The position numbers were made by a program, and so were the translations under genes. A DNA stretch of 64,000 nucleotides from a virus. The stretch's first letter is position 1; the number at the start of each line of letters is the position of its first letter. The DNA is taken from IMG/VR virus record IMGVR_UViG_3300003937_000247, one strand, 5' to 3'. This document shows, one piece after another, positions 57,865 through 64,000 of this stretch. The notes beneath the pieces were generated by a model that was given only the letters and a program-made list of their open reading frames with translations, did not search any database and was not told the origin of the DNA.

Positions 57865-58329
57865 ATGATTAATCGCATTGATGATAAAACTGTTAAGATA
57901 ATAAGGTTAGTTTCTGGTGAAGAAATCTGCTGTAAGTTCCCCTTACACAAATCGCAACTACCTGAAAACTCAAAACTATTAAGATTACAGGATCCTATGT
58001 TAATTAAATATGTTCCTCGTATAACTGAACAAGGTATATCTGACTATATTGCTTTAGTTAAATGGGTTGGTTTTACAGATGAAAAAATCGTTACTATACC
58101 TGTTGACAAAATTATAACAATATGCAATGCTACACCTCAATTTACAAAAAGGTATAGTGACCTTTCAAACTCACTAAAACACGCAAAACAACCATTACCA
58201 GGATTTATACAAAGAGATATGACGGAAGAGGAGTTAGAACACGCCGCTTCCTTGGAAAGAGAATTGAACAATGAGAACTTAAAAGACGTTGCTGAATATT
58301 GGAATATGCCTAGTAAAAAGATCCACTAG
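57865..58329 (+). CDS. Conserved T4-like hypothetical protein (Sm-like fold candidate)
   Basis: KIIRLVSGEEI motif; usual position between uvsW and gp55. Confidence 0.65.
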   Translation: MINRIDDKTVKIIRLVSGEEICCKFPLHKSQLPENSKLLRLQDPMLIKYVPRITEQGISDYIALVKWVGFTDEKIVTIPVDKIITICNATPQFTKRYSDLSNSLKHAKQPLPGFIQRDMTEEELEHAASLERELNNENLKDVAEYWNMPSKKIH

Positions 58330-58387
58330 TAGTTTTAAATCTAATCTAGTCACTAGCTAGGTATTCTCGGTAACAACCTACATAGGT

Positions 58388-58416
58388 AGTATAACAACGA
58401 ATTGGGAATATGTCAA
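58388..58416 (-). promoter_or_regulatory. Near-consensus sigma70 promoter on the minus strand (antisense)
   Basis: TTGACA (58416-58411), 17 bp, TATACT (58393-58388). Confidence 0.7.
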
Positions 58417-58422
58417 GCGGCC

Positions 58423-58668
58423 ATGAAAATTAGATTTTATCACAGACTAGACGGCACAAGATGGTTGGGATTCATACTAGCCATAATAGGTACATACATA
58501 CTTTCAGACGCAAATCCTTCAACTCAATGGTTGGGGTGGGCGATTACAACTCTATCCTGTAGTATATGGATATATATGGGTATAAAAGATAAAGATATAC
58601 CTAGAGCATTAATGGAAGTAATGTATTTTTTACTTGCAATAAGAGCTATATTTAATTGGTTATTTTGA
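58423..58668 (+). CDS. Small 3-TM membrane protein (PnuC/SemiSWEET-like size)
   Basis: Three hydrophobic segments; start MKIRFY. Confidence 0.55.
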   Translation: MKIRFYHRLDGTRWLGFILAIIGTYILSDANPSTQWLGWAITTLSCSIWIYMGIKDKDIPRALMEVMYFLLAIRAIFNWLF

Positions 58669-58678
58669 CCGTAAACCA

Positions 58679-58707
58679 TTGACAAATGCGACCATTTATA
58701 GTATTAT
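58679..58707 (+). promoter_or_regulatory. Sigma70-like promoter for gp55
   Basis: TTGACA, 17 bp, TATTAT ending 6 nt before the ATG at 58714. Confidence 0.6.
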
Positions 58708-58713
58708 ATAATA

Positions 58714-59274
58714 ATGAATACAAAATTAAAAATAAAGAAAAAACCTGAACACTATGTAGATAATAAAAAGTTTCTACTAGCGATGATAGAGTATAAGGAT
58801 AAGTGTAGTAAAGCTGACAAGAGAAAAAGAAGCTCACCACCAGTTACTAATTATATTGGTGAATGTTTTTTGAAGATTGCGAATCACTTATCTTATAGAC
58901 CTAATTTTATTAATTATACTTTTAGAGATGATATGATTTCTGATGGTATAGAAAACTGTTTACAATATCTTAAAAACTTTAATCCCGAAAAGTCAAATAA
59001 TCCATTTGCCTATTTTACACAAATCATTTACTATGCTTTTATTAGGAGAATACAGAAGGAAAAGAAACAATCTAATATTAAATATAAAATGATAGAACAA
59101 GCAGGTATAGATGAGTTTGCTGTATTGCCTGGCGATACAAACAATGATTACAAGAATCAATTTTTAGATTTTTTAAGAAAGAACAGGCCTTCAACTGAAG
59201 AACCTGCAAAACATTCAGAAATAAAAGTTAAGAAAAGAAAAAAAAGAACCTACAAAAGTGTTTTGGATGTTTGA
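58714..59274 (+). CDS. gp55: Late transcription sigma factor gp55
   Basis: HYVDNKKF, YIGECFLKIA, DMISDGIENC, NPFAYFTQI.YYAF.RRI.KEK. Confidence 0.96.
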   Translation: MNTKLKIKKKPEHYVDNKKFLLAMIEYKDKCSKADKRKRSSPPVTNYIGECFLKIANHLSYRPNFINYTFRDDMISDGIENCLQYLKNFNPEKSNNPFAYFTQIIYYAFIRRIQKEKKQSNIKYKMIEQAGIDEFAVLPGDTNNDYKNQFLDFLRKNRPSTEEPAKHSEIKVKKRKKRTYKSVLDV

Positions 59275-59344
59275 TTGGTTTGATATGACCGCTATTACTA
59301 TAGCGGCTATAGCTATAATAATATTCTTATTAATGGTAACCTAA
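59267..59344 (+). CDS. 25-aa hydrophobic microprotein
   Basis: MFDWFDMTAITIAAIAIIIFLLMVT*; overlaps the gp55 stop and is TAATG-coupled to gp47. Confidence 0.5.
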   Translation: MFDWFDMTAITIAAIAIIIFLLMVT

Positions 59345-60411
59345 TGAAGATTGCAATATTAAACGATACTCACTTTGGTGTTCGTAATGACAGCGAAGCG
59401 TTTAGAAATTATCAGCTTAGATTTTATAACGAAATCTTTTTCCCATATTTACAAGAACACAACATTAAAACTTTGGTACACCTAGGTGATGTTGTTGACA
59501 GAAGAAAGTTTATTAACTTTCAAACTGCTTCTATTTTTAGAAGAAAATTTTGGGATAGACTTTATGAAGAACAAATTGATACACACATTATAATAGGTAA
59601 CCACGATACTTATTTTAAAAATACTAATAATGTTAACGCTGTAGAAAATTTATATTCAACCTTTGACAAAAAAAATGAACCGTGGGTTTATACTAAAGCA
59701 GAAGTAGTAAATTTTGATGGTACTGATATTTTATTTGTACCTTGGATTTGTGATGACAATAGAGAACACTCTATAGAAATGTTGCAACACGCTAAAGCAG
59801 AATTAATATTTGGACATTTAGAGATTAAAGGTATTGAAATGCAGAATGGAATTATCAATGAATATGGTAATGATAAAGCAGATTTTAGTAGATTTGAAAG
59901 AGTTATATCAGGACACTTTCACAAACATACAGATGATGGCCAAATACATTATTGTGGTGCTCAATATGAAATGACTTGGTCAGATTATAAAGACCCTAAA
60001 GCATTTACTATATTTGATACAGAAACAAGAGAGTTAACAAGAATAAGCAACCCTTATACAATTCATAAAAAAATAATATATGATGATAAAAAGAACAACT
60101 ATGACCTTTTTGATATACAACCTTATCATAATCACTTCATTAAATTAATAGTATTAAATAAGACAAATGACCAAGTATTTGACAAATTTGTGGAAAGATT
60201 GTATAATGATATAACGGTACACGACTTAAATATTATAGAGGATTATTCTGATATTAAAGCAAGTGTCCGAGAAGATATTTTAGAAATGGGCGAAGATACA
60301 GTTACATTTTTAAATAATTATGTTGACCAGTTGGAAACAGATGTGAATAAAACAAGATTAAAACAATATTTGAAATCCATTTACATAGAAGCAAGTGATA
60401 CTAAAGCGTGA
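59344..60411 (+). CDS. gp47: Recombination endonuclease subunit gp47 (Mre11/SbcD-like)
   Basis: DTHFG, LGDVVDRRK, GNHD, GHLE, SGHFH. Confidence 0.95.
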   Translation: MKIAILNDTHFGVRNDSEAFRNYQLRFYNEIFFPYLQEHNIKTLVHLGDVVDRRKFINFQTASIFRRKFWDRLYEEQIDTHIIIGNHDTYFKNTNNVNAVENLYSTFDKKNEPWVYTKAEVVNFDGTDILFVPWICDDNREHSIEMLQHAKAELIFGHLEIKGIEMQNGIINEYGNDKADFSRFERVISGHFHKHTDDGQIHYCGAQYEMTWSDYKDPKAFTIFDTETRELTRISNPYTIHKKIIYDDKKNNYDLFDIQPYHNHFIKLIVLNKTNDQVFDKFVERLYNDITVHDLNIIEDYSDIKASVREDILEMGEDTVTFLNNYVDQLETDVNKTRLKQYLKSIYIEASDTKA

Positions 60412-60605
60412 TACCTGATAATAAAAACCAAGATAGAATTTATGTAGATACAACACATATTGCTTGTCAAGCAGATCATCCTAGAGTATTCTATACACCT
60501 AACAAAGATGGTTATGTTGTTTGTGAATATTGTAATGTAATGTTTGTATTAAAAGAAGACGCTGATACTACAACGGAGAGGTTATTTGTATATGATATAC
60601 TTTAA
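60408..60605 (+). CDS. zf-CHCC zinc-finger protein
   Basis: IACQADHPRVFY...VVCEYCNVMF. Confidence 0.75.
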   Translation: MIPDNKNQDRIYVDTTHIACQADHPRVFYTPNKDGYVVCEYCNVMFVLKEDADTTTERLFVYDIL

Positions 60606-62304
60606 AAAATTAAGATGGCGTAATTTTCTATCTACAGGTAATCAATTTATAGAGGTTGACCTAGCAAAGTCACCATCAACATTAATTATTGGTATGAATG
60701 GTGCAGGTAAATCAACTTTACTTGACGCATTATGTTTTGCTTTATTCAATCGGTCATTTAGAGATATTAAAAAAGAGCAACTTGTTAATACAATTAATAA
60801 TGCTGATTGTGAAATAGAGTGTGAGTTTGAAACACATAACAAAAGATATAAAATTATAAGAGGTATTAAACCAAATGTATTTGAGATATATTCTGATGGT
60901 GTTCTATTAGACCAAATGGCTTCTAATATAGACTATCAAAATATGTTAGAAACAAATATTTTAAAATGTAATTATCGTGCCTTTTGTCAAGTTGTTATAT
61001 TAGGTTCTACTTCTTATGAACCTTTTATGCACCTACGTGCTAGATATAGACGAGAGGTTGTAGAGGAAATATTAGACATAAGAGTCTTTAGTCATATGGA
61101 CTTATTATTAAGACAGAAACAAGGTGAGTTAAACAAATCTGTTGTTGATGTTAAACACCGATATGATTTAATGAAGGAGAAATTAGAATTACAGAACACC
61201 CATTTTGCACAAATACAAGATAGAGATAATACTGATATAGAATATAGAAAAGAACAATTAAAAGAAAACGCTCAAAGTAATTATGACTACAATCAGAAAT
61301 TACAATTACTTAATGAAAAAATCATATCTACAAAAGCAGAGGTATGGGGTGGTGACCAACATAATAAAAAGGCAAATGAATTATATAAACTTGAAGCGAA
61401 GATTGAAACTAATTTAGAAAGACATAAGAGCAGCTTAAACTTTTTTAAAAACAATGATAACTGTCCTACTTGTACACAACCAATTGATTTAACATTTAAA
61501 CAAAACAAACTTGTTGAAGAAAATGCAAAGATATGGAAATTAGAATCGGGATTAAAAGAATTATCTAAAGAGGCAGAAATAACAGAAGCGAAAATAGAAG
61601 AAATGAATAAAATCGCTGAAAAATTATCTGAATTAAATATATCTGTGGCTAAAGTAAACACTTCTATTTCAGAAATCAATAGACACTCCAATAGAATCGA
61701 TACTGAAATTTCTAAACTAGAAAGTGATAAACAAAATACAAGTAAAGTTGCTGAAGAATTACAAAAACTTAAAGATGGTTTAGTTGATGTTAATTTAGAA
61801 AAAGAAAAGGTTGTAGAAGAAAAGAAATATATTGATATTGCTAGAGAAATACTTAATGACACAGGTGTTAAAGCAAACATCATTAAGAAGTATCTACCTA
61901 TAATGAATAACTTAATTAATAAGTATTTACAATCTATGGACTTCTTTGTTAACTTTAATTTAGATGAGGAGTTTAACGAAACAATTAAAAGTCGCCATAG
62001 AGATACATTTAATTATAATAGTTTTAGTGAAGGTGAGAAATTAAGAATAGACCTTGCATTATTATTTACGTGGCGTACTATTGCCAAAATGAAAAACAGT
62101 ACAAACACAAACTTATTAATACTTGATGAAATATTTGATAGTAGTTTAGACGGTCAAGGTACCGAAGACTTTTTTAAAATACTTAAATCACTATCAAAAG
62201 AAAATACATTTATTATATCTCATAAAGGGGACATACTATTTGATAGGTTTACAAATATAATTAAATTTGAAAAATACAAAAACTTTACAAGGTTAGCACA
62301 ATGA
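60592..62304 (+). CDS. gp46: Recombination ATPase gp46 (Rad50/SbcC-like)
   Basis: GMNGAGKST, CPTC zinc hook, FSEGEK, LILDEIFD. Confidence 0.96.
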   Translation: MIYFKKLRWRNFLSTGNQFIEVDLAKSPSTLIIGMNGAGKSTLLDALCFALFNRSFRDIKKEQLVNTINNADCEIECEFETHNKRYKIIRGIKPNVFEIYSDGVLLDQMASNIDYQNMLETNILKCNYRAFCQVVILGSTSYEPFMHLRARYRREVVEEILDIRVFSHMDLLLRQKQGELNKSVVDVKHRYDLMKEKLELQNTHFAQIQDRDNTDIEYRKEQLKENAQSNYDYNQKLQLLNEKIISTKAEVWGGDQHNKKANELYKLEAKIETNLERHKSSLNFFKNNDNCPTCTQPIDLTFKQNKLVEENAKIWKLESGLKELSKEAEITEAKIEEMNKIAEKLSELNISVAKVNTSISEINRHSNRIDTEISKLESDKQNTSKVAEELQKLKDGLVDVNLEKEKVVEEKKYIDIAREILNDTGVKANIIKKYLPIMNNLINKYLQSMDFFVNFNLDEEFNETIKSRHRDTFNYNSFSEGEKLRIDLALLFTWRTIAKMKNSTNTNLLILDEIFDSSLDGQGTEDFFKILKSLSKENTFIISHKGDILFDRFTNIIKFEKYKNFTRLAQ

Positions 62305-62855
62305 TATATGAATTGTTACCACCAACTGATACAAGAGTCCTGTCAAGCATAGCACCTTTTGATATTGATGTTTTTAAAAAGGAAGAAAAAATAGAACTAA
62401 AAGAATTTGTAGATAATATGTTTGAAACAATGACAAAGTATGGAGGCATAGGTCTATCATCAAACCAAGTAGGCAAACCTTATCGTATGTTTGTAATGGG
62501 TTCTCATTCCGCAATACACAAAGGTAAAAAATGGGCGTGTATTAATCCAACAATAGTATCAGCAAGTAAACAGACAACAAGATTAAAAGAAGGTTGTTTA
62601 ACATATCCTTTTTTATTTTTAGATATAGAACGACCAAGTGCTGTCAAGGTTAAATACTTTGATGAAGAAATGAAAGAACAGGAAGAAGAAATGATTGGCA
62701 TTGTGAGTAGATGTTACCAACACGAGCTAGATCATATGAACGGAACAGTTTTTACAGAAAAAGTAAGTAAGTTTAAACTAGATTATGCTATGAGAAAACG
62801 TGATAAAGAAATAAGAAGGGTGCAAAGATTATGGAAACAAAGACAAAAATCCTAA
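62301..62855 (+). CDS. def: Peptide deformylase
   Basis: GIGLSSNQVG, EGCLT, QHELDHMNG. Confidence 0.95.
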   Translation: MIYELLPPTDTRVLSSIAPFDIDVFKKEEKIELKEFVDNMFETMTKYGGIGLSSNQVGKPYRMFVMGSHSAIHKGKKWACINPTIVSASKQTTRLKEGCLTYPFLFLDIERPSAVKVKYFDEEMKEQEEEMIGIVSRCYQHELDHMNGTVFTEKVSKFKLDYAMRKRDKEIRRVQRLWKQRQKS

Positions 62856-63445
62856 AAGAACTAGACTTACCTGAATACACACAAAGTTTAGATGATACTA
62901 ATAAATTTTTAGATAGTCTAACTTATTCAGCAGTTAAAACAAAATACAATGCAAAGGGTGATTGGGATGCTATATCAATAAAAGGATATAGTGATGACAT
63001 AAACAATATTTTAAAACCAGGTGTATTAAAATCAGATGTTGAAGACAAACCATTAAGATGGACAAGTCTATATGAAGAGCCTGCATTGTTACCTTTAAAA
63101 GAAATACTATCTCATATACCAGCAGAGTTTGAAAGAGTAAGAGTTATGAGATTAAAAGCAGGTACAACTATAAAAAAACATACAGATAAGGTTGATAAAG
63201 AAATAAAGAGTGGTAACATTATAAGATTACATATACCATTAAGAACAAATGATAACGTACATTTTTATCTATGGGAAGGTAAAGTAGAACAACACTTTAA
63301 TTTACAAGTTGGAAGATACTATTTTGTAGATGTATCTAAACCACACGCTGTACATAATAAGACAACTTTTGATAGATTACATTTAGTAGTAGATTGTTAT
63401 AATAATCCTAGATTAAAAAATCTATTGAAGCAAGGAGACGAATGA
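62831..63445 (+). CDS. Aspartyl/asparaginyl beta-hydroxylase-like oxygenase
   Basis: RVRVMRL..G..I..HTD, RLHIPLRTN, PHAVHN..DRLHLVVD. Confidence 0.8.
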   Translation: METKTKILKELDLPEYTQSLDDTNKFLDSLTYSAVKTKYNAKGDWDAISIKGYSDDINNILKPGVLKSDVEDKPLRWTSLYEEPALLPLKEILSHIPAEFERVRVMRLKAGTTIKKHTDKVDKEIKSGNIIRLHIPLRTNDNVHFYLWEGKVEQHFNLQVGRYYFVDVSKPHAVHNKTTFDRLHLVVDCYNNPRLKNLLKQGDE

Positions 63446-63879
63446 TCTTTGCAAAAAAAAGTGATTTTAAGAAAGTAAAAGAAATATTTTATAGTCATAA
63501 GAAATGGTTTCCTCACGTAAGAACTGACTATATGAAAAGGATGATTGCAAGAAAACAACTAATTTTAGAAGACGGTATATTGATAACCTTTCATCACGCT
63601 AAAAGAAGACAGACAATAGGTGATGTTCACGTTAGAAAAGGCGATACTGTATTACACCAAATTGCAAGTGATTCGCCAGGGTCTGGTAAAGGTCAAGCAA
63701 TATTAAATGACTTTTTTGACTATTGTCCTAGAGATGTGTTTTTATCAGTTAGAGCTGACAACTTGACTGCAAACAGATTTTATGTTAAAATGAATATGAA
63801 TTTAATTGGTAGTACTAGTTGGGCAAAAGGTACATTACCAGGGAATGTATATGTCAAACGCAAAAAGATTTGGCATTAA
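63442..63879 (+). CDS. GNAT-like acetyltransferase
   Basis: LHQIA..PGSGKG, LSVRADNLTANRFY. Confidence 0.7.
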   Translation: MIFAKKSDFKKVKEIFYSHKKWFPHVRTDYMKRMIARKQLILEDGILITFHHAKRRQTIGDVHVRKGDTVLHQIASDSPGSGKGQAILNDFFDYCPRDVFLSVRADNLTANRFYVKMNMNLIGSTSWAKGTLPGNVYVKRKKIWH

Positions 63880-63902
63880 AAAAAAGGAGAATAAAGAATA
63901 AA

Positions 63903-64000
63903 ATGAAAATATTATGTATATTATATGATGATCCAAAAGACGGTATGCCAAAATCATATCCAGTCAAAGACTTACCAAAATTAGAAAAGTATCCAGATGG
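63903..64000 (+). CDS. fdh: NAD-dependent formate dehydrogenase, 5' end (partial)
   Basis: MKILCILYDDPKDGMPKSYPVKDLPKLEKYPD closely matches the bacterial NAD-FDH N-terminus pattern (KVLCVLYDDP.DGYP..Y...DLP....YP.G); AGGAG RBS; only 32 codons visible. Confidence 0.75.
   Translation, partial: MKILCILYDDPKDGMPKSYPVKDLPKLEKYPD

Follow-up and report, generated by a model that had tools for sequence, protein, structure and literature searches.

Does the proximity of a peptide deformylase gene (def) and a formate dehydrogenase (FDH) gene in a marine phage genome reflect a functional pair, in which formate released by the first enzyme is oxidised by the second, or did the two genes become neighbours through recombination? 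The question arises at the end of a 64,000 nt stretch of the viral record IMGVR_UViG_3300003937_000247 (hereafter the window). A first-pass annotation of this DNA had proposed that def and FDH form a formate-recycling module, by which the phage recovers reducing power from deformylation or from the one-carbon (C1) metabolism of its host. The window derives from a marine T4-type phage that resembles pelagimyophages: it encodes a large terminase, tail sheath, portal, scaffold, major head protein and UvsW-type helicase, and its closest cultured genomes are those of the Pelagibacter phages Mosig and HTVC008M, with 72-74% nucleotide identity in conserved genes. We find that FDH reached its place behind a conserved def-containing block as a one-off insertion, and that its role is most likely to yield NADH from formate supplied by host C1 metabolism.

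The start of a formate dehydrogenase behind a conserved phage block

The features on which the question turns are the following:

62301-62855, + strand: peptide deformylase def, 184 aa (PF01327, E 2.1e-39)
62831-63445, + strand: Fe(II)/2-oxoglutarate (2OG) oxygenase of the aspartyl/asparaginyl beta-hydroxylase family (PF05118, E 1e-11)
63442-63879, + strand: predicted GNAT-fold acetyltransferase, 145 aa, last gene of the conserved block (model and family evidence)
63866-63902, + strand: insertion junction and spacer (alignment to relatives and to FDH-bearing contigs)
63903-64000, + strand: 5' end of an NAD+-dependent FDH, 32 codons plus 2 nt, running off the window

Def scores 135 bits against PF01327 (gathering cut-off 22.8) and its translation contains all three deformylase motifs as GIGLSSNQ, EGCLT and HELDH (patterns G(I/V)GLxAxQ, EGC(L/I)S and HExDH), which confirms the earlier statement that these motifs are intact. 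FDH begins on the same strand with an ATG at 63903, 1,048 nt past the def stop, and an AGGAG ribosome-binding site lies at 63885-63889 inside a 23-nt spacer; the interval between def and the FDH start is filled by two genes (62831-63445 and 63442-63879). Compared with all PDB chains (phmmer), the 32-aa segment matches NAD-dependent formate dehydrogenases exclusively (15 distinct sequences, best E 1e-8), its residues 2-31 aligning to chain residues 2-33 at the extreme N-terminus, and it contains the bacterial-type N-terminal segment KxLCxLYDDPxxGxPxxY...LPxxxxYP. Because these matches are to FDH only, at the N-terminus and far beyond chance, the reported start of an FDH gene is correct, both as a reading frame led by a ribosome-binding site about 1 kb after def and as a match to the metal-independent NAD-dependent type. 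The segment aligns to the N-terminus of the FDHs of Moraxella sp. C-1 and Pseudomonas sp. 101 (2gsd, 2go1, 2nac/2nad; EC 1.17.1.9, D-2-hydroxyacid dehydrogenase superfamily); unlike these enzymes, the gene of the window is phage-encoded, visible in its first 32 codons and known here from its sequence. A tblastn search of the 32 aa against 50,697 deposited phage records gave no match.

The gene order from gp55 through the 145-aa open reading frame (ORF) is common to the window and 72 related IMG/VR contigs (L001-L072), in which the overlapping trio of def, 2OG oxygenase and GNAT genes follows gp46. Similarity to these 72 contigs ends abruptly at 63865, and similarity to FDH-bearing contigs begins at 63880-63902. 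In each of the 67 relatives with 200 nt or more of sequence beyond the 145-aa ORF, this ORF leads into an overlapping 360-aa methylase-like ORF (starting MYMSNAKEV), which is followed by a 711-aa ORF and then by a CobS-like AAA ATPase. The window keeps MYMSNAK, the first seven codons of this usual next gene, where they overlap the last codons of the 145-aa ORF, and its sequence departs from theirs thereafter. Since the relatives all continue into the methylase-like ORF while the window retains MYMSNAK before diverging, FDH is a derived insertion at this exact point.

A 10-nt string, GAGAATAAAG, is found just 5' of the FDH start in the window (63866-63895) and recurs in the relatives about 25-40 nt inside the methylase-like gene that FDH displaced (L001 7801-7845), and a similar string, ATAAAGAATA, is present on FDH cassettes in other contexts. 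The string could represent an insertion microhomology, or chance in AT-rich DNA.

Linkage to def and the source of formate

Close relatives of the FDH gene are carried by at least 109 IMG/VR contigs, the best 80 of which (991 kb) were analysed for motifs and context. The block of gp46, def, 2OG oxygenase and 145-aa ORF stands beside FDH in none of these 80 contigs, and FDH follows the block in none of the 67 related contigs. A def homologue occurs anywhere in 5/80 FDH contigs, at a distance of 6-10 kb from FDH and with 33-37% identity to the def of the window, and in the first 14 FDH loci nothing homologous to any window ORF of at least 80 aa was found. Upstream of FDH, at least five unrelated sequence classes are found among the FDH-bearing viral contigs. 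FDH is a flexible cassette, and def and FDH are adjacent in this phage through a one-off insertion, not as a conserved pair. The survey of def-fdh linkage for which the first-pass annotation had called has thus been carried out, and it returned no recurrence of the adjacency.

In several FDH-bearing contigs the gene adjoins a divergent CHASE2 adenylate cyclase and a cluster of CsgF, CsgG and curlin-repeat genes, with a DUF1353 protein upstream (L074 2891-8671; L081 10879-14158). This setting matches the hypervariable region with curli genes that is known from pelagimyophages (PMC7029224). In a further contig (L181 6106-15052), FDH lies among genes for thymidine kinase, PRPP synthetase, a DUF6552 protein, a methylase-like protein, SAM synthetase and a 5'-3' exonuclease, a context that ties it to nucleotide and methyl metabolism genes.

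It is very unlikely, with linkage absent from both sets of contigs, that def and FDH constitute a functional formate-recycling module whose coupling explains their linkage. The two genes do share a strand and a packed string that lacks any terminator-like site from one to the other, and joint expression is therefore probable here, and FDH would oxidise any formate, including that derived from deformylation; a peptide deformylase and an FDH are also the standard pair of a coupled assay in vitro. Both enzymes are named in a paper on the cyanophage deformylase (PMC3660681). The adjacency is nevertheless unconserved, two unrelated genes stand between def and FDH, and FDH more often adjoins the CHASE2 adenylate cyclase and curli genes. 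The energetic return is likewise small. Deformylation releases one formate, worth about 1 NADH or about 2.5 ATP, per polypeptide, and each peptide bond costs about 4 ATP in a chain of about 250-300 residues. By our own estimate from these textbook costs, deformylation formate returns about 0.2% of the polymerisation ATP of a polypeptide, and because of this yield deformylation can be neither the main source of substrate nor the target of selection. Finally, the formate-tetrahydrofolate (THF) ligase of SAR11 could reuse formate directly (PMC3160333).

The explanation that we prefer, and regard as quite probable, is that of a core def string to which a mobile FDH cassette feeding on host C1 formate has been added. 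Def is a core phage gene in a packed and probably early string of gp46, def, a 2OG protein-hydroxylase-like oxygenase and GNAT. In this lineage alone, a mobile cassette, comprising the FDH gene and about 20 nt of upstream ribosome-binding region, was inserted immediately behind GNAT, where the methylase-like gene would otherwise begin. Its predicted product is a single-subunit, cofactor-free NAD+-dependent FDH, which would oxidise formate to CO2 and reduce NAD+ to NADH. This may provide extra capacity at the last step of THF-linked C1 oxidation in the host, by which osmolyte methyl groups and methanol are converted to formate and CO2, and would raise the NADH and energy supply of the infected cell with no need for the molybdenum cofactor on which the host FDH depends; deformylation would contribute a trivial share of the formate used. 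SAR11 bacteria oxidise methyl groups via THF to formate and CO2 for energy, with a molybdenum FDH that requires cofactor-synthesis genes (PMC3160333), and expression of THF-oxidation genes, among them that for the FDH accessory protein fdhD, rises when pelagiphages infect (PMC12753301). With a cofactor-free FDH encoded by one gene, a phage can widen the last C1 step cheaply. Of the two sources of reducing power named in the first-pass annotation, host C1 metabolism is thus retained as the most likely one, while deformylation falls away with its share of about 0.2%.

Several observations weigh against this explanation. The window contains 32 codons of FDH, and that the gene is complete in this genome is deduced from its sister alleles. 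IMG/VR contains no exact match to a 47-nt pattern taken from the FDH start, and a degenerate pattern of the junction between GNAT end and FDH start has none in JGI metagenome contigs. The source of the formate, and with it the benefit to the phage, is something that we infer, which likewise counts against it. Lastly, the host is open to doubt, as the nearest cellular FDHs to the allele group of the window are those of SAR86 (87-92% aa identity), not those of SAR11/Pelagibacterales (83-86%).

This last point bears on the origin of the cassette. Phylogenetic trees divide the viral FDHs among several clades. The 19 viral sequences that make up the group of the window are placed together with 13 from SAR86; the main SAR11 clade stands apart and contains viral subclades of its own. 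The SAR86 FDHs (L087-L100) appear nested among viral ones (L167-L180, L224, L233). A single viral clade is not rejected by the approximately unbiased (AU) test (p 0.234), and we therefore claim no donor. Cellular and viral single-subunit FDHs share the same architecture of 398-399 aa, with 83-92% protein identity between SAR86 or Pelagibacterales proteins and the viral alleles, but their flanking genes are unrelated: cellular DNA matches viral FDH contigs in the FDH gene only, and the flanks of the SAR86, SUP05 and Pelagibacterales FDH loci examined have nothing in common with viral FDH loci beyond that gene. It follows from the clade of viral and SAR86 sequences apart from SAR11 that the cassette might shuttle among marine myophages and two unrelated bacterial classes, such that either the FDH of SAR86 was taken up from phages or SAR86 is a host of some pelagimyophage-like phages, perhaps of this one too; we regard this as a tentative and rather unlikely scenario.

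Among FDHs labelled Pelagibacteraceae, that of L102, a contig of a metagenome-assembled genome (MAG), is the only one to fall within the viral/SAR86 clade. This contig has several short translated segments beyond FDH itself in common with viral FDH contigs, which sets it apart from the other cellular loci; it may be of phage origin and have entered the MAG through binning.

Integrity of the gene and of its junction

What the complete enzyme would look like is indicated by the sister viral alleles. These are complete at 398 aa and match both 2-hydroxyacid dehydrogenase domains (PF02826, E 4e-48; PF00389, E 6.6e-16); their alignment to the Moraxella FDH 2gsd is gap-free over residues 2-398 (E 1e-193), and that to the FDH of Pseudomonas sp. 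101 is nearly as strong. The reference residues (in Pseudomonas numbering Asn146, Arg284, Gln313 and His332, Pro97-Phe98, the AxGxxG motif and Asp221) all lie beyond the window end. Among the viral alleles, GIGSDH, YCNS, AAGRIG, NTARG and TPHxSG are conserved in 80/80 and FPQPAP in 78/80, and all 80 possess the Pro-Phe pair and the NAD-specifying Asp, so that the sister alleles have the same catalytic and NAD-binding residues as 2gsd. With a median dN/dS of 0.085 at a median dS of 0.60 (86 pairs), they evolve under strong purifying selection. In the 50,697 deposited phage records, the full-length viral FDH has no close relative, the best match reaching 44% in unannotated Staphylococcus records.

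A truncated or decaying remnant, of which the 5' end alone was kept after rearrangement, might present the same 32 codons, given that the remainder of the gene lies past the window end and that the insertion disrupted the start of the neighbouring gene, so recombination did occur at the junction. The 98 nt of FDH in the window agree with IMG/VR viral FDH genes at 91-96/98 nt and at 32/32 aa; that is, the 32 codons differ from functional-looking alleles at synonymous sites only, as expected under selection, which makes decay hardly credible. A full-length gene in this genome, as in its sisters, is accordingly what we would expect.

The abrupt end of similarity at 63865 made a chimeric join worth testing. 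At least 97% of the sampled words of 63300-64000 were found in 20 public runs from 13 studies, and Logan contigs from four independent marine studies, none of them flagged as a possible source, cross 63866-63903 with 0 differences (X12 record 6 spans 63520-63959, X14 record 18 spans 62586-63931, X17 record 28 spans 62633-63930, and X13 records 12 and 14 overlap across the junction). The same 98 nt reach at most 86/98 nt and 29/32 aa in 80 cellular FDH alleles, and thus differ from each of these at 12 or more of 98 nt. The FDH of the window is of the viral allele type and resident in a phage genome: the gene is joined to phage genes in nature, and its allele is distinct from the sampled cellular copies, as befits an auxiliary metabolic gene.

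In four of the runs (X12, X13, X14 and X17) the summed contig depth rises 3-4 fold over 63876-64000 relative to the upstream phage genes, and three other upstream sequences branch off at 63901-63902 in the same samples; at such a branch point of the graph assemblers can mis-join. The depth figures are sums over contigs and serve to show coexisting FDH contexts, not abundance. That the FDH start is an assembly artefact, either a chimeric join to host chromosome, as the first-pass annotation had cautioned, here that of SAR11 or SAR86, or a contig ending in a repeat, is practically ruled out, despite this branching and the sudden loss of similarity to every relative, by the unbranched contigs of the four studies and the viral-type allele.

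The depth rise and the branching also indicate that several FDH-bearing genotypes coexist in the same samples.

The def string, its transcription and precedents

Upstream of def, the string includes the following features:

58714-59274, + strand: gp55-like sigma factor
59344-60411, + strand: gp47-like phosphoesterase
60179-60207, + strand: candidate sigma-70-type (early) promoter TTGACA-17-TATAAT, identified by a 12/12 consensus match only
60408-60605: 65-aa Cys-rich ORF, which like gp46 follows the candidate promoter
60586-62304, + strand: gp46-like (SbcC/Rad50-type) recombination endonuclease subunit (Pfam SMC_N, AAA_15, AAA_23)

The gp46-like gene has 72-74% nucleotide identity to its counterparts in Mosig and HTVC008M, which are annotated as recombination endonuclease. 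The + strand genes are tightly packed over the last 6 kb, neighbouring genes sharing 4-25 nt, and the gp46 stop and def start overlap in ATGA. The candidate promoter falls within the gp47-like gene, in its 3' part, upstream of the string of gp46, def, 2OG oxygenase, GNAT and FDH. No terminator-like site was found on the + strand in 58000-64000, and no T4-type late box (TATAAATA) occurs after 50599. Because of the absence of both, together with the perfect sigma-70 consensus at 60179-60207, FDH probably shares an early transcript with gp46, def, the oxygenase and GNAT in this genome.

Def, reported from every pelagimyophage, and the Asp/Asn beta-hydroxylase are core genes of this phage group, where they lie in a DNA-metabolism operon (PMC7029224). 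The identity of the third member of the trio is less immediate. A search with the 145-aa ORF alone gave no significant match in Pfam or PHROG; PF00583 is matched by 12 of the 18 members of its family (best E 4.2e-5), and the best PDB matches of the family profile are the N-alpha-acetyltransferases Naa50, RimI and Ard1 (weak, E 0.006-0.06). An AlphaFold model (pLDDT 88.9, pTM 0.83) returned GNATs for all of the top 40+ Foldseek matches (TM 0.6-0.75), and PGSGKGQA follows strand 69-76, at the place of the acetyl-CoA-binding beta4-alpha3 segment of GNATs (Q/RxxGxG/A). By its predicted fold the ORF would be a GNAT acetyltransferase, the sequence evidence by itself being weak. All three products are plausible protein-modifying enzymes, and the trio may be a set that modifies proteins or ribosomes. 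This grouping of def, oxygenase and GNAT is better supported than that of def and FDH.

Phage deformylases such as that of cyanophage S-SSM7 and the def of pelagimyophages belong to the same Pfam family, have the same metal-binding motifs as the def of the window and are likewise phage-borne. By contrast to the def of cyanomyophages, a flexible gene beside photosystem genes, that of the window lies in a conserved recombination/replication string (PMC7029224). For FDH, the closest precedent is the mention of "a formate dehydrogenase" among the genes unique to deep-ecotype pelagimyophage (Zaragoza-Solas et al. 2020, PMC7029224). Phage group and enzyme name are the same as here, and the gene may be the same one. 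That account consists of one sentence, which cites the molybdenum enzyme FDH-H and proposes the generation of a proton gradient; it does not cover the single-subunit NAD enzyme, the occurrence of this enzyme in at least 109 viral contigs or the many sites at which its gene is inserted. Our literature search found no paper that pairs "NAD-dependent formate dehydrogenase" with "auxiliary metabolic" and no proposal of a coupling between def and FDH in phages.

The FDH of the window is a real but ordinary helper gene at a new insertion site. The enzyme is ordinary, the literature already mentions the gene, and the attractive coupling to deformylase is not borne out. The main value of the locus lies in a corrected annotation and one further documented insertion site. 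For the ocean myophages at large, which are abundant, it means that a simple, cofactor-free FDH is a widespread, selected and mobile helper gene, and C1 oxidation is indicated as an energy source worth boosting when streamlined marine bacteria are infected.

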